From Candidatus Paceibacter sp. (GTDB taxonomy: Bacteria > Patescibacteriota > Minisyncoccia > UBA6257 > 02-FULL-45-10c), in NCBI GenBank assembly GCA_020724845.1, contig DYGE01000001.1, positions 122,664-186,663 on the forward strand: 64,000 nt of DNA, written 5' to 3'. This document shows positions 1 through 64,000 of this stretch, piece by piece. The notes under the pieces were generated by a model that searched no databases, was not told where the DNA came from, and saw nothing but the letters and a program-made list of their open reading frames with translations. Both the position numbers and the translations under genes were made by a program. How positions within the stretch are numbered: the stretch's first letter is position 1; each line of letters begins with the position of its first letter.

Positions 1-403
1 CTCGTTTGCCGGCATTTTTTTCCTCTTCGGTTTCGCCAATGCACAAGATTGGAACCAAGCCAGTGTCAGTAGCTGCTTTTAATTTTTTTGCCACTATTTC
101 ATCAGTTTCTCCAAGTTTGTGCCGCCGCTCTGAATGGCCGACAATCACATACTCAACGCATAGATTTTTTAGCTCTTGAGCGGATACCTCGCCGGTAAAA
201 GCTCCTCCGCCGGCTGGCGGATTCTCCCAGAACACATCCTGCGCTCCCAAGCGCGCCTTTTTCAGAACTTTCGCAACTTCCTCTATAAAAACAAAGGGCG
301 GGGCAATAACGATATTCTCCTGATCACTGGCCTTGGCTAAAGAAATGGCTTCTTCCAAAGTCGCCGGGTTCATTTTCCAATTAAAAACTAAAAGTTTTGA
401 CAT
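1..403 (-). CDS. tpiA: Triosephosphate isomerase, N-terminal part; the gene runs past the window start
   Basis: Hand translation of the reverse strand from the ATG at 403-401 gives MSKLLVFNWKMNPAT...IVGHSERRH...ILCIGETEEEK, the classic TIM signature (NWKMN, GHSERR). It is not in the ORF track because it is truncated by the window edge. Confidence 0.85.
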   Translation of the reverse strand, partial: MSKLLVFNWKMNPATLEEAISLAKASDQENIVIAPPFVFIEEVAKVLKKARLGAQDVFWENPPAGGGAFTGEVSAQELKNLCVEYVIVGHSERRHKLGETDEIVAKKLKAATDTGLVPILCIGETEEEKNAGKR

Positions 404-1108: not shown

Positions 1109-1600
1109 CTAAATAAGAAAATTCCCTACTCCAGTCGTAAGCGCAAGCACAATCACACCTGCGGTGAGCACTCCAAGCGAGATGAATGTCACCGCTTTGC
1201 CGAAGTCCACCCCGAACACGAACGCGGCGACGGACGCGCTCCAGGCGCCGGTAAGCGGAAGCGGAATCGCGGTAAAGAGAAAAAGCGCCAGCGAGCCCCA
1301 GACCTCAAACTTCCTAGTATGCTCCCGCCTGGTCTTTTCAAAAAGCCAAGTCAAAAACTGGTGCGCGTAATAGTTGTGATGCATTAAATATTCTGAAAAA
1401 AAGCGGAGGCCTAAAAGAACTGGCGCAATGGGGAGCAAATTTCCAAGCACGCTCAACGCATACGCTTTAAGCGGAGAAAACTGAAAGGCTCCAATCGCGA
1501 TTGGAATTGCTCCTCGAAGCTCCACAATCGGAGAAGCTGAAATTATAATTGTCCAAAGCTCATTCGTCATTGATAAGTCGATTATAATAATACCACTCAA
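1109..1600 (-). CDS. Small polytopic membrane protein, possibly COG2426 (small multidrug export-like)
   Basis: The 163 aa product is hydrophobic with several predicted TM segments and a Gly/Ala-rich helix pattern. Confidence 0.4.
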   Translation of the reverse strand: MSGIIIIDLSMTNELWTIIISASPIVELRGAIPIAIGAFQFSPLKAYALSVLGNLLPIAPVLLGLRFFSEYLMHHNYYAHQFLTWLFEKTRREHTRKFEVWGSLALFLFTAIPLPLTGAWSASVAAFVFGVDFGKAVTFISLGVLTAGVIVLALTTGVGNFLI

Positions 1601-3468: not shown

Positions 3469-3798
3469 AAAACCAAGAAGATGTCCTTTCTTTAGACCGC
3501 CTCCATCTGCTAAACATAACCAGAAAGTATCCTCTGTGCGGCAACTGACGGAATCCTGATTTGCTCGGTTCGTCCGCCAGCTGGCGGACGAAAATCAGGG
3601 TGAGACGTAGGCGGAGTTATCACCCCGTGTTGGAAGGCAGGCCGCTATGCTATAGCATAGCGGTCGTCGGAAACCTGGAGGTGTCCGAGACGGGGGTCGG
3701 GGTGAGAATCTGGGACGGTAAGAGGATACTTTCTGGTTATGACACTTTGTCCCCACCGCGCAGCCCGAGTCTAAAGAAAGGACATCTTCTTGGTTTTG
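3469..3798. repeat. Nested-palindrome element, copy 1
   Basis: A perfect outer inverted repeat of about 27 bp (accaagaagatgtcctttctttagac / gtctaaagaaaggacatcttcttggt) encloses conserved flanks. Inside those is a 20 bp inverted repeat cataaccagaaagtatcctc / gaggatactttctggttatg. The core shared with the copy at 60220-60462 is ctgtgcggcaactgacggaatcctgattt...aaaatcagg.tgagacgtaggcgg. The element lies between the mreB stop (3810) and the mrdA start (3428). Confidence 0.6.
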
Positions 3799-3809
3799 GT
3801 AAAATCAGT

Positions 3810-4856
3810 TTAAATCTTTATGTCTTTAGGCCGCATCGGATTATTTACCACCTGATAGTACTTATCAAATTGCTCTACCGCTATTCCAGCGCCCCTCACA
3901 ACCGCGGTCAATGGATCATCAATCACTTTCACAGGAACCATAAATTCCTTTTCAAATAATTTGTCTAAACCCTTCAATAAGCTTCCGCCGCCGCAGAGCT
4001 GAACTCCATTCTTCAGAATATCGCCTACCAATTCCGGCGGCGTGGCTTCAATAACCTGCCTGATAGATTCAACCATTTCTTTCAGTGAACGGCTCATAGC
4101 CGCGCGGACATGGCTATCTTTAAGCACAACCTCTTTAGGCAAGCCGGTCGCCATATCTCTTCCCCGAATAGCCAATTCCAATTTTTGATCGATCGGCATA
4201 GCCGTTCCAATTACCATTTTCAATTCTTCAGCAGTCGGTTCGCCAATCGCGAGCTTATACTCTTCCCGCACAAATCGAATTATATCGTTATTTAGGCGGT
4301 CGCCGGCAATCTTTAAGCTTTCAGATGTGACAATGCCGCCCATTGAAATAACGGCTATTTCAGTCGTGCCTCCGCCGATATCCACTATCGCGCTGGCAGT
4401 CGGCTCATCAATCGGAAGGCGGGCTCCGATAGCGGCCGCCAGCGGCTCTTCCACCACATAGGCCTTATTAGCCCCGGCCCCAATCACCGCGTCCTCTACT
4501 GACTTTCTTTCCACTTCGGTCAGGTTGCTTGGCACTCCGATAACTGCCCGATTATAAGTCAAAAAGCTATTAGAAGCTCCAATTTTCCTAAAGAAATGCT
4601 TCAGCATCTCTTGCGTCATTTCAAAATCAGAAATAACGCCATTTATAAGAGGGCGGATGATATTAATATGCGCCGGGGTCCTGCCAACCATTTTCTTAGC
4701 CTCATCCCCGACTGCCAGAATCTGTCCGGTTTTGCTGTTCACAGCCGCGACTGATGGTTCATTAATAACTATTCCGCGCCCCGCGACGTAAACCAAAGAA
4801 TTCGCCGTGCCTAAATCAACTCCTATACCTTTTGAAAAATAATTAAAAAATTTCAT
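3810..4856 (-). CDS. mreB: Rod shape-determining actin homolog MreB
   Basis: N-terminal phosphate-1 motif GIGVDLGTANSLVYV and overall MreB architecture. I chose the start at the second Met (MKFFNYF...) to avoid overlap with the upstream ORF. Confidence 0.85.
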   Translation of the reverse strand: MKFFNYFSKGIGVDLGTANSLVYVAGRGIVINEPSVAAVNSKTGQILAVGDEAKKMVGRTPAHINIIRPLINGVISDFEMTQEMLKHFFRKIGASNSFLTYNRAVIGVPSNLTEVERKSVEDAVIGAGANKAYVVEEPLAAAIGARLPIDEPTASAIVDIGGGTTEIAVISMGGIVTSESLKIAGDRLNNDIIRFVREEYKLAIGEPTAEELKMVIGTAMPIDQKLELAIRGRDMATGLPKEVVLKDSHVRAAMSRSLKEMVESIRQVIEATPPELVGDILKNGVQLCGGGSLLKGLDKLFEKEFMVPVKVIDDPLTAVVRGAGIAVEQFDKYYQVVNNPMRPKDIKI

Positions 4857-8920: not shown

Positions 8921-9715
8921 TTATTGTATAGCTTCTAATTGCAATCGTTTATTAGTATTATAACTCTTTATCAAAAATAATCTATGCAAAACCCCTTTTA
9001 ATACGTCTTTATTTTTTACTGGCTCCGCCCGCAAGCTTATAACTAACTCCTCAAAAAATAGGTCCAGTAAGCCAGGGATCTTCTTTTCCTGATCTATCAA
9101 ATCCTTAATCAGCTTGGATCTTCCCGGCCCTGGCAATTTTAAAAACTTGTCCGCGTAACCGACTGCCTCTTCGGTCAACTCATCGGAAACTAGCCGCATC
9201 GCCCTCCCAGGGCGCCCATATGCTGAAGAGACCGCTTTCATGTTGCTTGTTACTTTTTCCATTTCGCTATCTGCTAACCTGCCAAAATGGATTTTTTGCA
9301 AACGGGACTGAAGAGGGCTTATCAAAGTTTCCGGCTGATGAACTACTAAAATCAAAGTTGCCCTTTCCGGCGGCTCTTCAGTAATCTTTAAGATCGCGTT
9401 CTGCGCCTGCGTAGTAAGGTCGCCGGCATTATCAATTACTACCAGCCGGCGGGAGGAAATAACCGGTTTCTGCCATAAGAAATTTTTCAATTCCCGCATG
9501 GCATCAATGCCAGTAGCATCTTCCAGCAATAAAGAATCTTGAAGCGGTTTTTTGGATAATTCAAACTCCCCTGTTTCCAGAAAATTAGCAAAATGCTCCG
9601 CAAAATAAAATTTCCCCACCTCCGGCTCGCCGAAAAAAATGTAGCCATGGGCTAAATGGTTATTCTTAACCAGCTTTTTGAAATCTTTTACCAGATGAGA
9701 ATGGCCAATTATCAT
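8921..9715 (-). CDS. holB: DNA polymerase III delta-prime-like clamp-loader subunit
   Basis: AAA+ clamp-loader N-terminus (GHSHLV...GYIFFGEPEVGKFYFAEHFANFL) and a size of 264 aa. Confidence 0.6.
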   Translation of the reverse strand: MIIGHSHLVKDFKKLVKNNHLAHGYIFFGEPEVGKFYFAEHFANFLETGEFELSKKPLQDSLLLEDATGIDAMRELKNFLWQKPVISSRRLVVIDNAGDLTTQAQNAILKITEEPPERATLILVVHQPETLISPLQSRLQKIHFGRLADSEMEKVTSNMKAVSSAYGRPGRAMRLVSDELTEEAVGYADKFLKLPGPGRSKLIKDLIDQEKKIPGLLDLFFEELVISLRAEPVKNKDVLKGVLHRLFLIKSYNTNKRLQLEAIQ

Positions 9716-10722
9716 TATCTCTTATTCAGAAGAGTTCTCTTGTAGACATCCAGATGGCTCAAGATAATGCCGGCGCCTTTGGCTACGCAAAATAGCGGCT
9801 CTTCGGCAATATAAGTTTCCACGCCAGTCATTCGCTTGAAGAATTCGTCAATGTAGCGCAATTGCGCTCCGCCCCCGGAAACGATAATCCCCTTTTCCAT
9901 GATATCAGCGACTAATTCCGGCGGAGTTTCGTTGAAAACGCTTTTTACTGAAGCAGCAATGTCAATCAAGTGCTGATTAAGCGCCTCGGAAATTTCATTA
10001 GAATTCACAACTATATCTTTCGGCAGGCCGGAAACCATATCCCGTCCGCGAATTTGGATCTCTAACTTTTCTTTGGATGGAAGCGCGGACCCGACTTCCA
10101 ATTTTATTAATTCAGCAGTTTGCTCTCCGATATGGAGCGAGTATTTTTTCTTAATATAATCCATAATCGCTTGGTCAAATTTATTGCCGGCAACCCTCAA
10201 ACTTGACCAGGCGACAATTCCGCCAAGGGAAATAACGGCTACTTCAGCGGTCCCGCCTCCAATATTAATAATCATATTGCCGGAATAAGAGTTGATCGGA
10301 ATGCCGGCGCCAAGAGCGGCTAAAAGCGGCTCTTTGACTATATAAGCTTCTTTCGCGCCGGCTTCTTTCGCGGCATTCATTATCGCTCTGCGCTCGGTTG
10401 GAGTAATCCCCGCGGGAGCGGAAATCACTACGTCCGGCCGGATTATATTAAACGAACCGGTAGCTTTGGCAATAAAGTACTTTAACATTGCCTTGGTTAT
10501 GTAATAGTCGGCAATGACGCCCTCTCGCAGAGGCCTGTAAGCGGCAATATCATCAGGCGTTCTGCCGATCATGTCCTTAGCTTCTCTGCCGACAGCCAGA
10601 ACGCCATTATCCGGCAAACTCAAAGCAACGATAGTCGGCTCGTTGATAATGAAACCTTTGCCCGGAACAAAAACGATGGTATTCGCGGTCCCGAGATCTA
10701 TTCCTATTTTTCTAGTAAACAT
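9715..10722 (-). CDS. Second MreB-like actin homolog (MreB paralog)
   Basis: IGIDLGTANTIVFV phosphate-1 motif and MreB-like length. This is the second copy in the window. Confidence 0.8.
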   Translation of the reverse strand: MFTRKIGIDLGTANTIVFVPGKGFIINEPTIVALSLPDNGVLAVGREAKDMIGRTPDDIAAYRPLREGVIADYYITKAMLKYFIAKATGSFNIIRPDVVISAPAGITPTERRAIMNAAKEAGAKEAYIVKEPLLAALGAGIPINSYSGNMIINIGGGTAEVAVISLGGIVAWSSLRVAGNKFDQAIMDYIKKKYSLHIGEQTAELIKLEVGSALPSKEKLEIQIRGRDMVSGLPKDIVVNSNEISEALNQHLIDIAASVKSVFNETPPELVADIMEKGIIVSGGGAQLRYIDEFFKRMTGVETYIAEEPLFCVAKGAGIILSHLDVYKRTLLNKR

Positions 10723-15044: not shown

Positions 15045-15832
15045 TATTTTTTCTTAGATTTTTTAGCTGTTTTGGTCGCGGCCTTTTTCTTAGCAGCTGG
15101 TTTTTTTGGCGCCGCAGGCTCCTTTTCTTCTACTTCCTTGACTTCAACGCTGGAAACCTTGTCAAAGTGGTCTTTCAAGATGTTAGCCGCTTTATGCAGC
15201 GCGGAAGACGGGGTAATACTGCCATCAGTCGCCAAAGTAATGATTAAGCGGTTATAATCGGTTCTGTCTCCGACACGCATATTTTCCACTGAAAAATTGG
15301 CCTTGACTACCGGGGAGAAAGACGCGTCTATGGCCATCGTGCCGATAGGGAGCTTATCCGACTTTCTAGCTTCAACCGGCACGTATCCCAAGCCTCTTTC
15401 CACGGTAAGCTCCATTTCCAGCTCCGCGGACTTGCTGCTTAGATTGGCAATGTGCGCGCCTGGATTAATAACCTCAACCTCCGCATTGGATTCAATATCG
15501 GCGGCAGTAACAGCCCTTTCCCCCTTAACTTTCAATGTTAAAGTTTGAGGCTCGTCGGTATGGGCTCGAAATCGGACTTTTTTCAAATTAAGGCCGATCT
15601 CTACGACGTCTTCAATAACATTAGGAATGGTTGAAAATTCGTGCTGAACTCCCTTTATCTTAAATTGGGTTACAGCTGCGCCCGGCAATGAAGAAAACAG
15701 AACCCTGCGAAGGGCATTGCCCATAGTAATTCCATACCCGGTGTAAAGACCTTCTATCTCAAATCTCCCCTCGGTATCGGTTTCGGAGACCTTTTTAATA
15801 GTGACTGACTCACTTAAATATGCGAACTGCAT
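15044..15832 (-). CDS. rpoA: RNA polymerase alpha subunit: N-terminal domain only, ending in a Lys/Ala-rich tail
   Basis: The alpha-NTD motifs are present (GYGITMGNALRRVLFSSLPGAAVT). The 262 aa protein ends in KKPAAKKKAATKTAKKSKKK and has no helical alpha-CTD. Confidence 0.85.
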   Translation of the reverse strand: MQFAYLSESVTIKKVSETDTEGRFEIEGLYTGYGITMGNALRRVLFSSLPGAAVTQFKIKGVQHEFSTIPNVIEDVVEIGLNLKKVRFRAHTDEPQTLTLKVKGERAVTAADIESNAEVEVINPGAHIANLSSKSAELEMELTVERGLGYVPVEARKSDKLPIGTMAIDASFSPVVKANFSVENMRVGDRTDYNRLIITLATDGSITPSSALHKAANILKDHFDKVSSVEVKEVEEKEPAAPKKPAAKKKAATKTAKKSKKK

Positions 15833-15864: not shown

Positions 15865-16476
15865 TTATTTTGAGTAATAGTCAACGACCATATTGACGTC
15901 AAATGGCACTTCCACTTCTTGCGGCAAAGCCACCATCTCTCCTTCCAACTTATCTTTATCCAGCTTCAGCCAAGTCGGAACTTCATATTTCTTAAGCCTT
16001 TCCGAAAGATCTTTCAGAGGGCCGGCATCATTGGATTCTTTTCTAATGCCTATTTTATCGCCTACTTTAACGATATAAGAAGGAACGGATACTTTGCGGC
16101 CATTCACGGTAACATGCCCATGCCCCGCAAGCTGCCTGCCGACAGATCTTGAGGGGGCGAAGCCCAAGCGGAACAAGACATTATCTAACCTGCTTTCCAG
16201 AAGCTGGATCATCACCAAACCGGTTACGTCGCTCTTTTTGGATGCCTCTTGAAACACTTTAAGCATTTGCGATTCTCTGATTCCGTAACTGAATTTGATC
16301 TTCTGCTTCTCATTCAGCTGCTGCCCCACTTCAGATGAGGAATGCCTGGCTTGCCCATGAAGGCCCGGCCGATGCGGCCGCCTTACCGTGGCGCATTTGG
16401 CAGAATTACAACGATGAGCTTTTAAGAAAAGCTTGGTTCCTAGGGCTCTTTCCTTTTTTTCTCTAGTATTAAACAT
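15865..16476 (-). CDS. rpsD: 30S ribosomal protein S4
   Basis: N-terminal Cys-containing segment and an S4 domain, in the conserved position between rpsK and rpoA. Confidence 0.85.
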   Translation of the reverse strand: MFNTREKKERALGTKLFLKAHRCNSAKCATVRRPHRPGLHGQARHSSSEVGQQLNEKQKIKFSYGIRESQMLKVFQEASKKSDVTGLVMIQLLESRLDNVLFRLGFAPSRSVGRQLAGHGHVTVNGRKVSVPSYIVKVGDKIGIRKESNDAGPLKDLSERLKKYEVPTWLKLDKDKLEGEMVALPQEVEVPFDVNMVVDYYSK

Positions 16477-16478
16477 GT

Positions 16479-16928
16479 TTAAACTCGTCTAACTTTTTTA
16501 GGCCTTGGGCCGTTATGTGGTATCGGAGTTACGTCTTTAATTGATGTTATATTAAAACCTTGATTTCCAAAAGAGCGAATGGAGGAATCACGGCCGCTGC
16601 CAACGCCGTTAACGTAAATATCCACATCCGAGAGTCCAGTCTTCTTAAGTTTCTCGGCAATTGCTGAAACTACTTTTGAAGCGGCGAAAGGGGTAGCTTT
16701 CTTCGGTCCGGAAAAGCCCAAAGATCCCGCGGAAGCCCAGGCAACGGTATTTCCCTGTTGGTCAGTTACCGTAATAATAGTGTTATTATACGAAGCTCCA
16801 ATATAAACATTGCCCCGGCCTAATTTCTTGCCGGAACCCTTAGAGGCTTTCGCCATAGTAGCCTCTAGCGCGTCTTTTTCTTTTAATACCTCCTCTTGAG
16901 TTTGTTGTGCTATTTTTTTCTTTCCCAT
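16479..16928 (-). CDS. rpsK: 30S ribosomal protein S11
   Basis: GNVYIGASYNNTIITVTD...PHNGPRPKKVRRV matches the S11 signature. Confidence 0.9.
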   Translation of the reverse strand: MGKKKIAQQTQEEVLKEKDALEATMAKASKGSGKKLGRGNVYIGASYNNTIITVTDQQGNTVAWASAGSLGFSGPKKATPFAASKVVSAIAEKLKKTGLSDVDIYVNGVGSGRDSSIRSFGNQGFNITSIKDVTPIPHNGPRPKKVRRV

Positions 16929-17397: not shown

Positions 17398-17511
17398 CTA
17401 TCCCTGCCTTTGTTTATGTTTTTTAATTTTGCAAACAATATAAACCCTGCTTTTTCTTCGCACGACTTGGCAATCTTTGCATATTTTTTTTACTGATGCT
17501 CGTACTTTCAT
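17398..17511 (-). CDS. rpmJ: 50S ribosomal protein L36 (37 aa); below the ORF-track length cutoff
   Basis: Hand translation gives [37 protein letters not shown], the L36 zinc-ribbon pattern. The gene sits between infA and rpsM as in the canonical order. Confidence 0.8.
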
Positions 17512-17627
17512 CCCGTTAGAGGCAGGTCGCGGTCTTTGTTATCCCGGCATGCCTTAATTCAATCAAAATAATTATATTAAATATTATTCTCTCTAATCCC
17601 ACCAGCGACCGCGGCCTCTAACGGGAT
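17510..17627. promoter_or_regulatory. Long imperfect hairpin between infA and rpmJ
   Basis: Roughly 21 bp arms (atcccgttagaggc(aggt)cgcggtc / gaccgcggcctctaacgggat) around an AT-rich loop of about 70 nt that contains a TATAAT-like box on the minus strand. The 5' arm overlaps the rpmJ start codon. Confidence 0.4.
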
Positions 17628-17643
17628 TCGTTCCTGACGATAA

Positions 17644-17886
17644 TTAAAGTCTCCTTACAATCCTTCCTCTTTTATCATCATAAGGAGTCATCTCCATAAT
17701 AACCTTATCTCCAGGGAGGATTTTAATATAAAACATCCTCATCTTCCCGGAAAGGTGGGCTAAGACTAATTTCCCATCATAGGTCTTAACACGAAAAGAA
17801 GCACCCGGTAGGGCCTCTTCAACGATTCCTTCAACCTTGATAACGTTCTTCTTTGAAGACTTATCCTTTTCTTGATTCTGTGTCAC
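17644..17886 (-). CDS. infA: Translation initiation factor IF-1
   Basis: S1-like OB fold of 80 aa: [33 protein letters not shown]... Confidence 0.9.
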
Positions 17887-17920: not shown

Positions 17921-18000
17921 GTCAACCCCACACATAACTTAGGCCACATGAGGCAAAACAACTCTTGGAGTTGCTAGTCTAAGTTATGTGTGGGGTCAGC
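17921..18000. repeat. GTCAACCCC-foot hairpin repeat H1
   Basis: gtcaacccc followed by a 17 bp arm ccccacacataacttag, a 35 nt loop and the arm ctaagttatgtgtgggg. It is intergenic, just upstream of infA. Confidence 0.6.
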
Positions 18001-18047: not shown

Positions 18048-19127
18048 TTATTCCCGAACCACTAATCCCTTAGCCGCTTTAATGGTTACTTCCTTAAGCC
18101 CTCTTCTAACCTTGAAAGTCATTTCTTGGCCGACAGGCGCAGCGCGTATTCTTTCTATCGCCTGCCAGGATCCTTCTACCGGCTCACCGTCAATTTCCTC
18201 AATCAAGTCCTTCGGCTCAAAGCCGGCTCTTTCCGCCTCCGAATTCGGGAAAACCTGGATAACCTGTGCCGGAACGTTACCGCACTTAATATCGCTAGGA
18301 CAATTAAAGTGGACGCCTAGTCCCAAAAATCTCCTTCGATGTATAGTATCAATTCTAAATTTATCGCCGCTGATAACCGAGAGCTTCAAGAACGATTCTT
18401 TTTCCAAAGAATATTTTTCAGTGCCGGCGAGCGACTCCCTATCGGCAAATGTTCTTATGAAAACATCGTAGGCTTTTCCCGCATTATCAAATGACACGTC
18501 ACCTTTGTACAAAACCTTGCTCTTAAAAGCCGGCACTAAAGAAAGCAGCAAGTATTTGTATCCCTCGCCGTCCGCAAAAAATCCATGAACCAGCTGATCG
18601 CCCGCCTTAAAACCGGAACGGTCCGCCCAGCTTCCTTCCGTGACCGAACTAACCTTTGCGGAACCGATTTCTACCGGAATTTGGCTAAAAACTAGCTGCT
18701 CCAGCAATTCCTTGCTTGGGAAACTGTATGTTTTGACTTTAAAATCCTTCGGGCTATAGAACGCCAGCCGGGCATCTTCCCGCAAAGAAGCAAGGCGCGC
18801 GGATACGTCGGTTTCTGCCGGAACAACTTTGCCGTTGACTGCCAGCAGAAGGTCTCCGGCGCGAATATTTTCTCGAGAGAGATCTGACATATCATCGCCA
18901 GGCTGTAAATTGCCAAAATCGGCGTACCTGGAAGTTTCTTGAGGGGCTGCCTTCACGGCGGACAGGCGTAAATTAGAATTCTCTAAAACAAGGCCGATCT
19001 GTTTACGCAGGATATTCGCTTTCTGTTCCTGATTCAACGAAACGTGCAGCTGACGCGACTTCACGCGCATGGAGGCGCAGCCGCTGAAAACAACAGTAAG
19101 AGTAACGGCAACCAAGATTCTCTTCAT
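18048..19127 (-). CDS. Putative lipoprotein with PDZ domains
   Basis: The lipobox-like signal VVFSGC and two PDZ-like GD..LL/I motifs. Confidence 0.4.
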   Translation of the reverse strand: MKRILVAVTLTVVFSGCASMRVKSRQLHVSLNQEQKANILRKQIGLVLENSNLRLSAVKAAPQETSRYADFGNLQPGDDMSDLSRENIRAGDLLLAVNGKVVPAETDVSARLASLREDARLAFYSPKDFKVKTYSFPSKELLEQLVFSQIPVEIGSAKVSSVTEGSWADRSGFKAGDQLVHGFFADGEGYKYLLLSLVPAFKSKVLYKGDVSFDNAGKAYDVFIRTFADRESLAGTEKYSLEKESFLKLSVISGDKFRIDTIHRRRFLGLGVHFNCPSDIKCGNVPAQVIQVFPNSEAERAGFEPKDLIEEIDGEPVEGSWQAIERIRAAPVGQEMTFKVRRGLKEVTIKAAKGLVVRE

Positions 19128-19198
19128 TTCCTTTTCTCCTTTTCAAAAGATGGATACTGGCTGTAGGTTAATACAAATTATTCTTTTCGTCAACCCCG

Positions 19199-19327
19199 CA
19201 CCTTTGCGAAATAGAAATCTCCACGGGCTTCGATTTAGATAATCCCAATAGATATGTGGCATATTGACTGCTTCGGGGCTCTTTTCTGTATTTGTACTGA
19301 AAAGCAATCTCGCAAAGGTGCGGGGAA
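19199..19327. repeat. GTCAACCCC-foot hairpin repeat H2
   Basis: gtcaaccccgcacctttgcga ... tcgcaaaggtgcgggg with a loop of about 88 nt. It is an inverted homolog of H3. Confidence 0.6.
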
Positions 19328-19383
19328 ACTTTAAAAACAAAAAAGCCGCGTATTTACGCGGCGCGCCATAAAATCAGGGCTGG

Positions 19384-19541
19384 CTACTTTTTAGGGAGAA
19401 ACGGCAAAAGTAATCTCAAAAGATCCATCAGATCCCCAAAAACCTTTTTAAACCAGGGCTTGATCACCCAATAGAATACGCCCAAAGACAGAACGACACC
19501 CATCCCAAGCCCCACAAGAAGAAGGACCAAAGAAGTGAGCA
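19384..19541 (-). CDS. Possible small membrane protein (52 aa)
   Basis: Hand translation gives MLTSLVLLLVGLGMGVVLSLGVFYWVIKPWFKK.... There is a GAGGAA upstream, and a hairpin-plus-T-run terminator downstream at 19347-19372. It is below the ORF-track cutoff. Confidence 0.3.
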
Positions 19542-19666
19542 TGCTGTTCCTCAATGCGTGGAATGATGTACTGAGTTAAATAATATCCGAAATATCCAGC
19601 GGTGTCAATCTCTTGATTAGCTCCCCAACCCCTTCCCGCATTTTATACCGGAAGGTTCCGCTAATA

Positions 19667-21316
19667 TCACTCAACAGTAATGTTAATCTTGTCAGGATTT
19701 GTTGGCACGGTCTTTACCCAAAATGGCCATAGGGATATCGTCGCGCTTTCCAGGCCGGGCAAGGAAAAGACCGCGGTTTTTAGTTCTGTTTCTGATTTCC
19801 CTAAAATCCTGGACTGTAAATCATCAATATCAATGCGCTTTGCAAGGACCGCCTTGAAATCCACCGGGAAAGACAGGATGCCTTTTCCGAAATCAACCCT
19901 CGCCAGCCCGAACTCAATCTCCGAAGATCGGATGTCAAAATCTTCCCCATTGTCTCTTTTCGCTCTTAAAGCTAGCAGTTCCTGCAAGTCCTCTTCCTTG
20001 AAAGCCACCGCAGTCATTTTTGCTTCCGTAAAAATCCCAAATTCCCCATTCTCATCCGCCTCTTCATCAATTGCCTGCTCTAGCACCTCATACTCTGTTG
20101 CGCCATCAAGTACTTTGAACTCTTGGGGAATTTGAGTTAGCAAAGCGGCTTTTAGCCCACCCTCCAGCTCGTCCCCAGCTTTAGATCTTGCCTGGGCAAT
20201 ATCTTCGGAAGTCGGATAAGCAACTTCTCCAATAAAGCCTCCGGACATGTCGCCAGTAGATTCTCCATAAAAAGACTGATATTTGGGCGTTCCTTTAAAT
20301 CCGGGGATAGTAAATAGTTTCACCGGACCGATGTTAAATTCCGGCCCCGGCTCGTCGGCAATAACTTCCGCGTCAATGTTAGAAGGCACGATCTTACCTT
20401 CAATGATTTTGGCTCCCGGCACGGTTATGCCGTCAGCTAACCTATACATTTTTCCATCCGGACTTATAAAACGGGTTCGCTCAACCAATGGCTGCGGATC
20501 GGAACTGTAGCTGTTGTATACGGTAATTACGCCAGTCGCGTGCCGTTCAACTTGGCGCCTGCCAGTCGCGGGAAACTTGAGATGAAGATTCTTGCTTTCC
20601 GAAAAAATCTGGTTCGGAATACTCATGCTCCCGACATCTAAACCTATGCCGGTGTTGGTGTTGATGGAATCATTATAATTCCAATCCTTGGTCTGTGCCA
20701 CGATAGTAACCGCGGCCCGCGGCAAAACTACGGCTCCCGCCCAGCCGGCCAAAGCCAAAGCGGCGGCAACGATAAATATACTCAACCAGCGAGAGCTTGG
20801 CAAAGATAATTTAGGCATAGAAATTTTCGGCAAAGGCAATCGTCTTCCTTCCGTTGGCTTCTTTTCCTCCCCCTTTGACAGCTTGCCAAAAATAGTGAGC
20901 GGGCTCACCGGAGAGATAAATGGCTTTTCAGCTTCCGCTTCAATCGCCTTCGGCTCCTCCGCTTCTTCAACTTCCTCTTCCTGGAAAACTTTTGCTACCG
21001 GCTTTCTTTTCTTGGCCTTGCCTGCTTTTGGGGCGACTATGTCGGAAAACTGGCGCTTATTCTTAGTAAAGAATGGATTAACTGCTGACAGGCCGCTCAT
21101 TTCAGCTAATTCGATGACATGATCATCAACTGATTCAATAGAAATTTTTTTATCTAAGGCGTCGGCTTCCCGTTTCAAGAGGTGAAAATTACTCAAAGAC
21201 TCTCCTAGATGAGAAAACCTGGGTATGCTTAAAATAACCTCGTTATCAGGAGTATCGATAATTTTCTCAACGATGACCGCTACCTCATCGCTTTTGTTAA
21301 CTGAAATTTTCTTCAT
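19667..21316 (-). CDS. Bitopic membrane protein with a large extracytoplasmic domain; function unknown
   Basis: K/E-rich cytoplasmic N-terminus, one TM helix (WLSIFIVAAALALAGWAGAVV), then a roughly 330 aa outside domain. Confidence 0.4.
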   Translation of the reverse strand: MKKISVNKSDEVAVIVEKIIDTPDNEVILSIPRFSHLGESLSNFHLLKREADALDKKISIESVDDHVIELAEMSGLSAVNPFFTKNKRQFSDIVAPKAGKAKKRKPVAKVFQEEEVEEAEEPKAIEAEAEKPFISPVSPLTIFGKLSKGEEKKPTEGRRLPLPKISMPKLSLPSSRWLSIFIVAAALALAGWAGAVVLPRAAVTIVAQTKDWNYNDSINTNTGIGLDVGSMSIPNQIFSESKNLHLKFPATGRRQVERHATGVITVYNSYSSDPQPLVERTRFISPDGKMYRLADGITVPGAKIIEGKIVPSNIDAEVIADEPGPEFNIGPVKLFTIPGFKGTPKYQSFYGESTGDMSGGFIGEVAYPTSEDIAQARSKAGDELEGGLKAALLTQIPQEFKVLDGATEYEVLEQAIDEEADENGEFGIFTEAKMTAVAFKEEDLQELLALRAKRDNGEDFDIRSSEIEFGLARVDFGKGILSFPVDFKAVLAKRIDIDDLQSRILGKSETELKTAVFSLPGLESATISLWPFWVKTVPTNPDKINITVE

Positions 21317-26797: not shown

Positions 26798-26950
26798 ATT
26801 GTAAAAGGTCAACCCCGCACCTTTCAAGGATTGCTTTTCAGAATAGACGCTGAAAAGAGGATAACGATTTATCTATAACAATCTTTAACTAAAATACCTT
26901 ACTGAATTCACGTATGGGTGAATTCTTATCCTTGAAAGGCGCGGGTCAAT
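26798..26950. repeat. GTCAACCCC-foot hairpin repeat H3
   Basis: gtcaaccccgcacctttcaaggat ... atccttgaaaggcgcgggtcaat with a loop of about 105 nt. Confidence 0.6.
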
Positions 26951-36017: not shown

Positions 36018-36088
36018 GGCCCCACACATAACCGGAGTTAGCACTAAGTACGCAAACTTTACCGCTCTGGTTATGTGTGGGGTTGACA
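36018..36088. repeat. GTCAACCCC-foot hairpin repeat H4, in inverted orientation
   Basis: ccccacacataacc ... ggttatgtgtggggttgac. It lies in the divergent dnaG/rpmB intergenic region. Confidence 0.6.
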
Positions 36089-38854: not shown

Positions 38855-39445
38855 ATGATTTTTGGGGCACTGCTTTTGACAGTGGTACTGCCAGTGATAG
38901 GCATCACCGCTTGCGTCGGCATCCATCATTACAAAGAGAATAAACTGCTGGAAATTTTCTTGGTCATTGCCGAGAAATCAATTAACCAAAAAATCAAAGA
39001 TGAGCAGGCGGACAAAGCCATAAACATTCTGCATAACAACAAGAAAATACCCGCGCCGAATCCGATCCAGATAAACATCTACAACCCAGACGGAGCCATA
39101 GTGGCCTTTTATCTCTTTAAGGCCGAAATACGATACCTGCTGGATTGCATAGATAAGCGCCGAAATCAGAGAAAATACCTTTCCTCGCTGTCTCCCAGGG
39201 CTAGAGGTGACGTACTTAAATTCATTGATAACACAAAGAGATTTCTAAAATTCATTGACTTTGATCATATGGATTTTGAACTGCGATCCCTGTTTCTGCA
39301 CAAAACCTATCGCGCAACCGTGCTGATGTGCCGAAAAATCCCGGATGAAAACAATTATCCTGAGCTGGATTTCATCCCGCTTTTTGAAATTGTTGATAAA
39401 AGCCCCACTAGAACCGTACGACTACTGCCTTACTTCCCTACTTAA
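38855..39445 (+). CDS. Hypothetical signal-anchored protein
   Basis: N-terminal TM helix (196 aa). Confidence 0.35.
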   Translation: MIFGALLLTVVLPVIGITACVGIHHYKENKLLEIFLVIAEKSINQKIKDEQADKAINILHNNKKIPAPNPIQINIYNPDGAIVAFYLFKAEIRYLLDCIDKRRNQRKYLSSLSPRARGDVLKFIDNTKRFLKFIDFDHMDFELRSLFLHKTYRATVLMCRKIPDENNYPELDFIPLFEIVDKSPTRTVRLLPYFPT

Positions 39446-39518
39446 TCCCACACATAACTAAGGTTAGCGCCATAGGCGCAAGTTTTAACTGTCTTAGTTG
39501 CGTGTGGGATTTTTGATT
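39446..39518. repeat. Hairpin repeat H5 (cacacataac family, degenerate foot)
   Basis: atcccacacataactaag ... cttagttgcgtgtgggat. It sits between convergent gene ends and overlaps the last codons of the exonuclease gene. Confidence 0.55.
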
Positions 39519-51008: not shown

Positions 51009-52343
51009 TTAGACAATCACGCCTCCGCCAAGCATCATTATAGAATTTGAACCCTCCTTCGCTGAAGCTTCCGCCTTCGCCAAGGCTTCGGCGGACAGGT
51101 CGGCGGGCAAGTAAAACACCGCCGATTGCCCAGAGGCAACAAATTTTTGAGGTTGGCTAAATACAAGCTTGAATAAAGAATTATGAATCACGAATGATGC
51201 GGGAACTAGCGGCTGCCTATAGCGCACTCGCGCTAAAACTGGAACGCTTAATTCCTTATTCTTAATTCCCCTGCCGCCTGCCCGGCCAGGGGGCAGGCTT
51301 AATTCCATATTTACAAGATTCACATCTCTTAACTCAATCTCCTTTTTGTAAAGCATCGGGTCGTCCTCCGAAGCTATAACGACAGTATTAGTTTTCACAT
51401 CCTTGCTCGCCACATAAAATGGTTGTTGGTTATTAGTTGTCGGTTGTAAGTTCACCCCTATGCGCCTTTGGCCGATCGTATAAAAATACGCTCCGCTATG
51501 CTTTCCGACTGTTTCGCCAGCGGAATTCAAGACTAAGCCCATTTTTTCCGGAATGTAATTACCCAAAAAATCCTTAAGCGTAACCTGCCCAAGAAAACAA
51601 ATCCCCTGCGAATCCTTTTTCTCGGCGTTCGGCAAGCCAAATTTCTTTGCCAGCTTCCTCACCTCCGGCTTGGTATATTCACCAATCGGAAACAAACAAT
51701 GCCGTAGCTGCTCCTGCGTCAGCGTCCATAAAAAATAGCTTTGATCTTTATTTTTGTCTTTAGCGATATATAAAGAAAAAATATTTTGGGTCAATCTGCC
51801 GAATTGTCGTGGAGAAACTACGGAAGCGCCAAAAGATTGGTTTCCGCTGAAGGCGGAATTTTGGCGCTGAGGCGTAGCGGGCACTCGCCGCTGGAGCGAG
51901 TGAACCGCGGTTCTCGCAGACGATTCGACTGAGCGACTTCTGCCCAAGCGGACATAGTGCCCGGTCGCCACATAGTCCGCCCCCATTTCCAATGCCTTCT
52001 GCAGAAACAATCCAAACTTAATCTCCTTATTGCACATCACATCCGGATTCGGCGTAAGACCTTTGCGATATCCGTCAACCATATATTCAACCACTTTATC
52101 TTTATATTCCTGCTCCATGTCAAAAACATAAAATGGAATGCCTAAAACCTCCGCCGCTCTTCGCGCGTCCTCCGCATCCTGTTCCGCGCAACCGTCAACG
52201 TTGTAGCACTTTAAATGCGCGCCAACCACGTCAAAACCGCGCTCTTTCAAAAGCGCCGCCGCAACAGACGAATCCACTCCCCCGCTCATTCCCACGAATA
52301 CCTTTTTGATCTTTTTACTTTTTGGCATAGCTATAAAATACAA
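51009..52343 (-). CDS. mnmA: tRNA-specific 2-thiouridylase, with a low-complexity insertion of about 60 aa
   Basis: PP-loop VGMSGGVDSS, then CNKEIKFG, ATGHY and DQSYFL motifs. An Ser/Arg/Gln-rich insert lies between HYVR and DQSYFL. Confidence 0.8.
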   Translation of the reverse strand: MYFIAMPKSKKIKKVFVGMSGGVDSSVAAALLKERGFDVVGAHLKCYNVDGCAEQDAEDARRAAEVLGIPFYVFDMEQEYKDKVVEYMVDGYRKGLTPNPDVMCNKEIKFGLFLQKALEMGADYVATGHYVRLGRSRSVESSARTAVHSLQRRVPATPQRQNSAFSGNQSFGASVVSPRQFGRLTQNIFSLYIAKDKNKDQSYFLWTLTQEQLRHCLFPIGEYTKPEVRKLAKKFGLPNAEKKDSQGICFLGQVTLKDFLGNYIPEKMGLVLNSAGETVGKHSGAYFYTIGQRRIGVNLQPTTNNQQPFYVASKDVKTNTVVIASEDDPMLYKKEIELRDVNLVNMELSLPPGRAGGRGIKNKELSVPVLARVRYRQPLVPASFVIHNSLFKLVFSQPQKFVASGQSAVFYLPADLSAEALAKAEASAKEGSNSIMMLGGGVIV

Positions 52344-54431: not shown

Positions 54432-54471
54432 ACACCTAAATATAACCTATTTCCGGTCTGCAGGGTTAACC

Positions 54472-54499
54472 AAAAAAATATCCACGTCCGAAGACGTGG
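54472..54499 (-). terminator. Intrinsic terminator ending the GC-rich non-coding transcript
   Basis: On the minus strand CCACGUCUUCGGACGUGG is followed by AUAUUUUUUU. Confidence 0.65.
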
Positions 54500-55100
54500 A
54501 TGAAGGGGGTCGGAAAACGCACTTGGCGATCCTGAAAGGCGAGGTTTTCCCTGGCCTTAATCAAGTTCGCTTATCAGTATCCAGCTTGCCCCGATGTTAT
54601 GGGTAAGCGGGCGGGAATCAGATGTTGAAGGCCAGAGATCCGGCGCGCGCGATTGGCGCGCGGCCCATGGATTGCCTTCTTCCGAGGATTCCCACTGGAT
54701 ACTTGTCACCCTGCATTTCGCAAGGCTGCGTTTTCCGGTGAAGGTACGAAAGAGAAGTGGCTTTTGCCGGTGCTTGATTTACTCGCGTGCTTCAGACGCA
54801 TTTGCGAAGTAAATCCCGACAGGCCCGGATGTCGCGACACCCGAGACGCTCCATATGGGAACACAGCCCATAGAAGCGAAGCCGACCTGATGCGCCGAGG
54901 GAGCGAGTCACGGGGGATCGTGCCCGTTCCTTTGTACCCCACCAACTCCGCCTCAATTGCGGTAGCTGGACTCGGTGACCAGGTTCTAACCATCCCAGAG
55001 CGTTGTTGCGCCCTGGGTGCATTCTCCGCGGCGCCAGCCGACGCCCCCGTATCGGGAGGGCCAGCTCGTTCTGCGCCTGACCGGAGAAGATTTTCAAGGT
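54500..55100 (-). ncRNA. Candidate large structured ncRNA, or an unusually long attenuator-type leader, of about 620 nt; identity unknown
   Basis: About 58% GC against about 45% around it. It has no credible ORF in any frame; the six-frame ORFs here are Arg/Ser/Pro-rich artefacts that overlap on both strands. It is bounded by a consensus promoter (55108-55135) and the intrinsic terminator (54472-54499), and contains many local GC helices. Confidence 0.45.
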
Positions 55101-55107
55101 TAGGGAC

Positions 55108-55135
55108 ATTATAGCATAATAACAGAATCTGTCAA
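55108..55135 (-). promoter_or_regulatory. Consensus sigma70 promoter firing leftward
   Basis: On the minus strand TTGACA (55135-55130), a 16 nt spacer, then TGCTATAAT, an extended -10 (55116-55108). The -35 hexamer is supplied by the GGGGTTGACA end of hairpin repeat H6. Confidence 0.55.
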
Positions 55136-55215
55136 CCCCTTAGTAGAACTTCGGCTAGGCCGCCTTTAGCGGCCTTATCGCTGAAAGCCACCGAAGTTTC
55201 ACTAAGGGGTCAAGC
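55131..55215. repeat. GTCAACCCC-foot hairpin repeat H6
   Basis: gtcaacccc-ttagtagaacttcgg ... ccgaagtttcactaagggg-tcaagc, with an inner hairpin ggccgcctttagcggcc. Confidence 0.55.
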
Positions 55216-60045: not shown

Positions 60046-60219
60046 GTCTTACCTACTAAATATTTAACATCTATATAATAGCATACTTATATGAAAAGCG
60101 CAAGTCCCCACCAAGATTCGCGTAAGATCATCAAATAATCTGCTATCTTTTACGACTATATGTATTTTTTAAAATCACACATAGGATAACAGATTCCAGA
60201 AAAAATGTAAAGAGTCACA

Positions 60220-60462
60220 ACCACCAGAACCTATTTCAGCTGCACGCCTCCACCTGATAAACATAACCAGAAAGTATCCTCTGTGCGGCAACTGACGGAA
60301 TCCTGATTTGCTTGGTTCGCTTGCGAAAATCAGGATGAGACGTAGGCGGCGCTGATCGCAGGAATCAGCGAACGCTGGTGCCGGTAGGAGGATACTTTCT
60401 GGTTATGACACTTTGTCCCCACCGCGCAACCCGACGCAGCTGAAATAGGTTCTGGTGGTTTT
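60220..60462. repeat. Nested-palindrome element, copy 2
   Basis: Perfect outer inverted repeat accaccagaacctatttcagctgc / gcagctgaaataggttctggtgg. It has the same conserved flanks, the same 20 bp inner inverted repeat and the same conserved core as copy 1, with a different variable inner hairpin. It lies 18 nt 3' of the secF stop. Confidence 0.6.
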
Positions 60463-63871: not shown

Positions 63872-64000
63872 TTAGTTTTCAAGTTGAGGCGATCCTGGCT
63901 ATAGATTACCAGAATTTTATTAAAAAATCAAGCGCTTGATTTTTTATTTTCTCCTGCTATCCTTTTATCAGTTCTGAACTTAAGCGAATAAGAGGCAGTT

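Follow-up and report, generated by a model that had tools for sequence, protein, structure and literature searches.

What are the nested palindromes that recur, in almost the same form, at two unrelated operon junctions of a patescibacterial genome? The DNA analysed here is a stretch of 64 kb (the window), in which an earlier note had pointed out two such loci and proposed either a family of structured RNAs or a mobile hairpin element that is non-autonomous. We find that the evidence backs both together. The window holds three copies (c1, c2 and c3, for copies 1 to 3) of a structured hairpin-repeat family that was previously undescribed, and on balance we hold it probable that the two loci and the third copy represent a non-autonomous dispersed mobile repeat of Harrisonbacteria-like Patescibacteria, the unit of which is a structured strand of ~145 nt and probably a small RNA.

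Layout of the copies and extent of the family

The two loci lie, as the earlier note had it, between the genes for MreB and a PBP2-type transpeptidase (mrdA; c1) and between those for SecF and a Sigma70_r4/HARE-HTH protein (c2). Their assignment to the minus (coding) side did not hold up, as the evidence presented below favours the + strand as the one that folds. The minus strand carries almost all genes of the window, GC skew is negative throughout, and at all three copies the folding strand runs antisense to the host genes. Homologues of SecF place the host among Harrisonbacteria-like Patescibacteria, with nearest relatives that are only ~70% identical. A second MreB/Mbl paralogue is encoded at 9715-10722, ~5 kb from the mreB that adjoins c1.

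Both loci are built from an outer helix (P0), asymmetric flanks, an inner helix (P1) and a core (Table 1). The outer inverted repeats are perfect and differ between the copies, as claimed before, and the repeat scan sets their lengths at 29 and 25 bp instead of 27 and 23 bp. Alignment of the two loci agrees with the conserved asymmetric flanks that had been described, the common parts being CGCCTCCAYCTGMTAAA on the 5' side and ACACTTTGTCCCCACCGCGCARCCCGA on the 3' side. The inner inverted repeat, said to be an identical 20 bp, is indeed perfect over 20–21 nt (20 nt in c2 by the repeat scan); it proves to be helix P1 of the family, which is the same in c1 and c2, is homologous between c1 and L032, one of the relatives' contigs, and differs but covaries in L013, L020, L024b, L027 and c3. 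The core had been called almost identical, and its sequence CTGTGCGGCAACTGACGGAATCCTGATTT shows no difference between c1 and c2. A variable region is present within it, of ~100 nt in c1 and ~35 nt in c2 and not of the ~150 and ~50 nt given earlier. These repeats are not expected by chance: shuffles predict 0.01 occurrences of the inner 20-mer, of which the window has four, and none of the core or the 3' flank, of which it has exactly two each. The predicted folding energy of c2 is -125.4 kcal/mol (z = -12 relative to shuffled controls; -120 kcal/mol and z = -10 for its other strand), and that of c1 is -168.9 kcal/mol (z = -9.9).

In c1 the tip of P3 is an extended perfect palindrome (3569-3592), and the domain of ~100 nt that stands in place of P4 contains another (3642-3663). 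This copy is the weakest of the three in the window under the covariance model (77–83 bits) and, given its broken P2, may be decaying. By comparison, c2 matches the model over 60266-60403 with 130–132 bits (E ~1e-25), and its opposite strand scores only 19.6 bits.

Table 1. Positions of the three window copies, of their parts and of the copies in relatives' contigs
Feature	Position	Strand	Remarks
c1 outer helix P0, 5' arm	3469..3497	+	29 nt, 100% complementary to 3769-3797; copy-specific; A-run at start
c1 5' asymmetric flank CGCCTCCATCTGCTAAA	3498..3514	+	conserved with c2 and with L015 15615-15631 (another species)
c1 helix P1, 5' arm (the earlier note's inner inverted repeat)	3515..3535	+	21 nt, perfect repeat with 3721-3741
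c1 core	3536..3720	+	P3 intact; P2 broken; P4 replaced by ~100-nt domain
c1 helix P1, 3' arm	3721..3741	+	repeat scan, 21 nt, 100%
c1 3' asymmetric flank ACACTTTGTCCCCACCGCGCAGCCCGA	3742..3768	+	identical to c2 at 26/27 nt
c1 outer helix P0, 3' arm	3769..3797	+	TTTT end; mreB stop (3810-3812) 12 nt away
c2 outer helix P0, 5' arm	60219..60243	+	25 nt, 100% complementary to 60436-60460; copy-specific
c2 5' asymmetric flank	60244..60261	+	one extra unpaired A, then CGCCTCCACCTGATAAA
c2 family unit	60262..60407	+	P1 (60262-60281 / 60388-60407) around three-way junction P2-P3-P4
c2 3' asymmetric flank plus one unpaired C	60408..60435	+	
c2 outer helix P0, 3' arm	60436..60460	+	TTT next; secF stop (60480) 19 nt away
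c3 (subfamily B)	51792..51935	+	inside mnmA (51009-52343, minus), antisense to the gene
L013 copy	16425-16568		between efp and NTP-transferase gene
L015 copy	15632-15709		fragment at contig end, 54–57 bits
L020 copy	17632-17775		inside mnmA, sense
L023 copies	10004-10147 and 8997-9137		
L024 copy	9289-9430		
L027 copy	9989-10132		
L030 copy	1328-1491		
L032 copy	180-323		

The two copies first described are both real, and a third, more divergent one (c3) had been overlooked; a scan of the window with the model and without filters returns exactly these three. The wider search that the earlier note had called for gave, besides c3, about ten distinct copies in contigs of related Patescibacteria. 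Counted as distinct hits of BLASTN and the covariance model there are 12, namely c1, c2 and c3 plus nine copies in relatives' contigs; the sample analysed comprises only ~12 distinct copies from ~7 organisms. Scores under the 144-position model range from 83 to 164 bits, except for the L015 fragment and for c1, which scores 77 bits under a second model; E values of the family matches run from 1e-14 to 1e-34. c3 scores 104–132 bits and forms a second subfamily together with the copy at 8997-9137 of L023.

The divergent copies in L013, L015 and L020 came from BLASTN against the relatives' secF-region loci, and a peptide profile of one stop-free frame gave three ORF calls, through which further copies were reached in L023/L024/L025/L026, L027-L029 and L030. 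An exhaustive search with the peptide profile among 1.84 billion representatives returned only eight ORF calls over the element, one of which led to L032, and the family may therefore be narrow. Searches with exact patterns yielded a chance match for the core 20-mer in genome contigs (a signal-peptide coding region of Planctomycetota), seven unrelated single matches for the inner-repeat 18-mer in metagenome contigs, and no match in viral contigs. Comparison with Rfam, also proposed earlier, left the core without a match to any family: Rfam 15 at gathering thresholds recognised only tRNA-Pro in the whole window, a search of the c1 region at E<=10 gave only a chance AT-rich match outside the element, and the copies of L026, L029 and L030 had no match on the element at E<=5. 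Likewise, no account of a comparable element turned up in full-text searches of the literature on Patescibacteria.

Other hairpins are scattered through the window. Those at 17925-17996, 36020-36082 and 39444-39511 have a common stem, CCCCACACATAAC paired with GTTATGTGTGGGG, and different loops; they constitute a second repeated hairpin family, which the covariance model does not match. Long hairpins at 19194-19325, 26814-26945 and 55135-55210 have arms with CCCCGCACCTTT, or something close to it, at their start; TCAACCCCGCACCTTT is common to the first two, and several hairpins of this type are followed directly, on the minus strand, by a promoter-like TTGAC(A)-17-TATAAT arrangement. An intergenic region of ~680 nt (54432-55110, 57% GC), between an NTP-transferase gene and efp, is visibly structured. 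It has no Rfam match at E<=1, contains no tmRNA and has no BLASTN match in the relatives' loci; we considered it as a homologue of the L013 region beside that contig's copy, and dismissed this for want of BLASTN similarity.

Fold, covariation and folding strand

As modelled, the unit of ~145 nt takes the same fold in all copies: a long rod, P1, of 15–21 bp and differing sequence, carries at its end a three-way junction of P2, P3 and P4. Between P1 and P2 (CGGCA:UGCCG) lies a small internal loop (GUG / GUA or UCA). P3 starts with an invariant base, UACG:CGUA, and an internal loop, GA//GAGG (or GAGA), beyond which a 10-bp helix leads to the invariant bulge GCUUGG and to a tip hairpin that differs in length between copies. 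P4 is linked to P3 by one A. It consists of GGCG:CGCC and a further helix of 8 bp, which covaries and ends in the conserved loop CGCAGGA, and the chain returns from P4 to P2 via GG.

The fold could be checked for covariation, as the earlier note had urged, and compensatory changes back it when measured against slid controls, shuffles and RNAalifold. In an alignment made by MAFFT, blind to structure, 96.6% of cells are paired compared with 37–44% when partners are slid; both sides have changed in 32 of the 54 pairs, and none of 500 shuffles reaches any of these measures. In the alignment of the 12 distinct model hits, compensatory change is seen at 43 of 54 pairs and the share of paired cells is 97%, although this alignment leans towards the structure since it was fitted to the model. 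RNAalifold independently finds the same fold with 31 compensatory pairs. Examples are P2, which becomes UGGCA:UGCCA in L024b and GAGAA:UUCUC in c3, and the P3 helix CCCUGA:UCAGGG, which becomes CUCCGA:UCGGAG in L024b. Judged from these alignments, compensatory substitutions hold the predicted fold. A gene for a Cys-rich micropeptide (CxxC...CxxxC), which one frame might have suggested, is ruled out: L024b has lost one Cys and gained a stop while keeping every RNA pair. The number of stops per frame varies among copies and no frame is consistently stop-free, which gives no reason to assume general selection on translatability.

Which strand folds is suggested by the wobble pairs. The family has 19 G.U cells and three A.C cells, although L013 goes the other way (three A.C, one G.U). 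Furthermore, L023 and L025 represent one locus in two strains, and between them the outer helix CAGCCAGUA:UACUGGCUG has changed to UAGUUGGUA in such a way that pairing is kept only via G.U. Together, the G.U excess and this helix point to 5'-GUGCGGCAAC as the folding strand, which is the + strand of the window. Between the two strain versions of this locus, ~10 substitutions, nearly all of them C>T or G>A, fall within 35 nt of 5' flank (L023 9969-10003, L025 707-741), a local hypermutated patch; hardly any differences are seen in the core and in 70 nt of 3' flank.

Dispersal, insertion into mnmA and the outer arms

Several features of the copies are those of a mobile element. c1 and c2 are nearly identical and sit at unrelated loci. 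The gene order around secF (secD-secF-sigma_r4-DUF8128-TraG-like-efp) is conserved in relatives, and the secF-to-sigma_r4 junction measures 434 nt in the window versus 75–238 nt in L013, L014/L015, L016 and L020; at the secF junction of five relatives there is no copy and no long hairpin. Copies are dense, with three in the 64 kb of the window and three in 11 kb of L024, where both orientations occur, and across the family the orientation relative to neighbouring genes is mixed. One L023 copy (L023b) adjoins a truncated copy, and the other (L023a) is enclosed by an outer rod bearing the flank motifs of the family.

The enzyme that might move the element is not apparent nearby: the ~50 ORFs of the window contain no Pfam domain of a transposase, integrase or reverse transcriptase and, specifically, no Y1 transposase/RAYT domain. 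No direct target-site duplication was identified, and c1 and c2 are flanked by inverted, not direct, repeats. A GCGAG repeat beside L027 was examined as a possible target duplication and rejected, being a family motif present in other copies too. In L013 a pair of genes for bAvd and a reverse transcriptase, of the diversity-generating retroelement type, is found at 18789-20175, ~2 kb from that contig's copy. An exact-protein look-up of SecF and MreB gave no strain-level empty site and returned only contigs of the same strain, which contain the copy or end inside it. Among the contig ends L004, L005 and L031, those of Logan short-read contigs of this strain fall inside c2, exactly 30 nt beyond the final position at which the copies can be told apart, and that of a JGI contig falls inside c1. 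The repeats break assemblies.

Two copies lie within coding sequence. c3 occupies the mnmA frame without a stop, adding ~48 residues in a loop between HYVRL and AKDKNKDQSYF and splitting the Pfam tRNA_Me_trans (HUP) domain into two stretches. The insert runs antisense to mnmA yet keeps the frame open throughout, which means that it must be translated and not spliced. The L020 gene carries a family copy in the same MnmA loop, in sense orientation and again with an open frame, and the mnmA of L016 has no insert. Judged by these frames, the mnmA copies are tolerated, presumably read-through insertions, as in Rickettsia palindromic elements. The L020 loop also contains, directly 5' of the family copy and in frame, a second and unrelated hairpin of ~145 nt (17468-17612, 18-bp stem), the interior of which includes GTCCGCCACCGCGGAC, resembling the 3' flank of the window copies.

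The outer arms of c1 and c2 differ from the rest of the element in their distribution. They have no common sequence, each is unique in the window, and both start with an A-run, end with a T-run and exceed all other terminator-like palindromes in the window (arms of 15–19 nt). In c1 they meet the conserved ends exactly, and in c2 with one unpaired base per side. Such arms are specific to c1 and c2; L027, L024b, L030 and L032 have neither the arms nor the asymmetric flanks. Because L015 has the 5' flank, we take the flanks to belong to a subfamily unit and the arms to be made or acquired at each locus. Perfect palindromes without a spacer at helix tips (3569-3592 and 3642-3663 in c1; also in L030) point to palindrome formation at the DNA level.

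The arms would extend the rod, and two origins can be proposed for them. The element may have landed on the dyad of a palindromic terminator with an A-run and a T-run, or one flank may have been copied by fold-back, primed by the element's own hairpin. A perfect 30-bp palindrome without a spacer, TAAAAAATCAAGCGC followed directly by GCGCTTGATTTTTTA, is present at 63921-63946; it resembles a bidirectional terminator and can serve as a model of an unoccupied palindromic site. The complete structure, which includes the A-run and T-run, might act between operon genes as a large bidirectional terminator or as a target of RNase III. A more radical proposal, which we regard as speculative and distinctly unlikely, is that a mobile structured RNA (or its cDNA/ssDNA copy) uses a new integration chemistry, by palindrome-dyad targeting or by hairpin-primed fold-back, to give inverted target duplications of 25–29 bp. 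Such a chemistry would explain the copy-specific perfect arms, the zero-spacer palindromes at the tips and the onion-like nesting of rods.

Explanations, known systems and implications

If the copies are a mobile structured RNA or its gene, as we favour, the folded strand would be recognised by an enzyme acting in trans, not encoded in the window, which would copy the element, and intergenic copies may also be expressed as small RNAs. Many intergenic copies carry features that would fit expression: a -10-like box and a conserved frame, ACAAC..AAGCGAG on the 5' side and YGAGCGA..UAUUUU on the 3' side, with the rod and U-tract as a possible terminator. By eye, the copies of L027, L024b, L030 and L032 lie ~25 nt past a host terminator hairpin, which is followed by the -10-like box; in L027, L024b and L030 the ACAAC..AAGCGAG frame precedes P1 and YGAGCGA follows it, and a UAUUUU-type tract comes after the latter. 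The two frames could form tandem G.A pairs, and the intergenic arrangement looks like a putative small transcription unit with the rod as its terminator. A sigma-70 promoter scan beside c1 and c2 on the + strand found nothing above chance.

These same features, along with the strong covariation, the invariant loops and junctions and a folding strand that neighbouring genes do not set, would also suit a family of host small-RNA genes that is not mobile. The copies would then be paralogous ncRNA genes (scaffolds of an RNP, or regulators) spread by ordinary duplication and gene conversion, with the outer arms as processing or terminator stems. We consider this unlikely, if deserving of serious attention, because such genes are not expected within the reading frame of mnmA in both orientations, in truncated or nested form, or absent from the orthologous junctions of relatives; a density of up to three per 11 kb is hard to square with ordinary paralogues, and point mutation cannot yield perfect flanking arms of 25–29 bp. 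An RNA that removes itself from host transcripts, as a self-cleaving ribozyme or a miniature self-splicing intron, would account for the compact, conserved junction core and for the sense copy inside mnmA of L020, and introns are common in Patescibacteria (PMC13011429). However, no Rfam ribozyme or intron model matches at E up to 5–10, most copies are intergenic, and the stop-free, in-frame antisense insertion of c3 speaks against removal from the transcript, all of which makes this reading very improbable. Resemblances to hammerhead, group I, group II and retron msr/msd RNAs were also considered and set aside, as Rfam gives them no support and the window has no adjacent RT gene.

The fold might instead matter only as DNA. 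In a REPIN or an IS200/IS605-PATE-type element it would be the ssDNA substrate of a Y1 enzyme (RAYT/TnpA-like) or something similar, and RNA would be incidental. The element is indeed hairpin-based, strand-specific, non-autonomous and without direct target duplications; G.T wobble forms in ssDNA too, and the zero-spacer tip palindromes and perfect outer arms imply events at the DNA level, not selection on RNA. Nevertheless we judge a purely DNA-level element to be quite unlikely. Beyond the lack of a Y1 transposase/RAYT domain in the window, a three-way junction with loops of the tandem-G.A type is neither a REP doublet nor a pair of LE/RE hairpins, the folding strand in the window is the leading-strand template by GC skew while the IS200/IS605 type favours the lagging, and the L024 copies stand in both orientations within 11 kb. 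As for unrelated palindromes, either intrinsic terminators of the ordinary kind or products of chance, the A-run and T-run of the outer arms do recall the bidirectional terminator at 63921-63946. The probability of this reading is practically nil, since twelve copies fit one 144-position model and shuffles never reproduced the repeats; repeat shuffles, covariation and model matches together refute it.

How does the family, which we continue to read as a mobile repeat with a structured strand, compare with known small repeats? It is most like Rickettsia palindromic elements (RPEs), REPINs and Correia-type repeats, but it does not fit the definition of any of them. RPE copies have a common consensus sequence and a conserved peptide. 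They are hairpin-forming, non-autonomous, dispersed elements of ~150 bp whose mechanism of spread is unknown, and they are translated as in-frame inserts in surface loops of housekeeping proteins (PMC10969869). The present family likewise occurs in frame in a surface loop, that of MnmA, twice (c3 and L020). It differs, going by the descriptions of RPEs, in a rod that varies and covaries, a peptide frame that is not conserved and an apex formed by a three-way junction; it is also mostly intergenic and is found in Patescibacteria, not Rickettsia.

REPINs are inverted doublets of REPs of 20–40 nt, with a GTAG motif, hundreds of copies and an adjacent RAYT gene. The family resembles REPs and REPINs as a short non-autonomous hairpin repeat, often at gene ends, that keeps structure over sequence and makes no direct target duplications, but its unit is a 145-nt rod with a three-way junction instead of a REP doublet, and the window lacks RAYT/Y1. 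Correia, ERIC, BOX and SPRITE repeats have conserved terminal inverted repeats, and Correia also has a TA duplication; we know of no description in which any of these has a three-way-junction core that covaries, or perfect outer arms of 25–29 bp that differ from copy to copy. These repeats, and sRNAs derived from QMITEs, are cotranscribed with their neighbours as long hairpins that are targets of RNase III/E or terminator-like, and small repeats of the Correia type insert into one another and sometimes yield sRNAs (PMC10969869). Palindrome-associated elements derived from IS200/IS605, together with their omega/reRNAs, share with the family strand specificity, dependence on hairpins and the absence of target duplication. 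They encode a structured RNA at their ends. The family, however, lacks separate left-end and right-end hairpins, its two window junctions show no conserved target tetranucleotide, and neither TnpA, TnpB nor IscB is encoded near the window copies. Like a classical MITE it is small, non-coding and multi-copy at non-orthologous sites; unlike one, it has terminal repeats that are not conserved in sequence among copies, and there is no parent IS in the window. The combination of a covarying three-way junction and copy-specific perfect outer arms is the family's own.

For RNA biology, the family provides a motif that is new and well supported, a three-way junction whose loops do not vary and to which no function has been assigned. 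For the study of mobile elements, it is a case in which structure is conserved rather than sequence and the flanks are inverted instead of direct repeats; if insertion does make the outer arms, this would amount to a new mechanism of integration. The genomes of Patescibacteria are tiny and leave little room for repeats, yet one hairpin repeat per 4–20 kb is tolerated here, even inside mnmA, an essential-type gene for tRNA modification. Perfect nested palindromes break short-read assemblies and inflate ORF calls, and knowing the family should therefore improve the assembly and annotation of genomes of the candidate phyla radiation (CPR).
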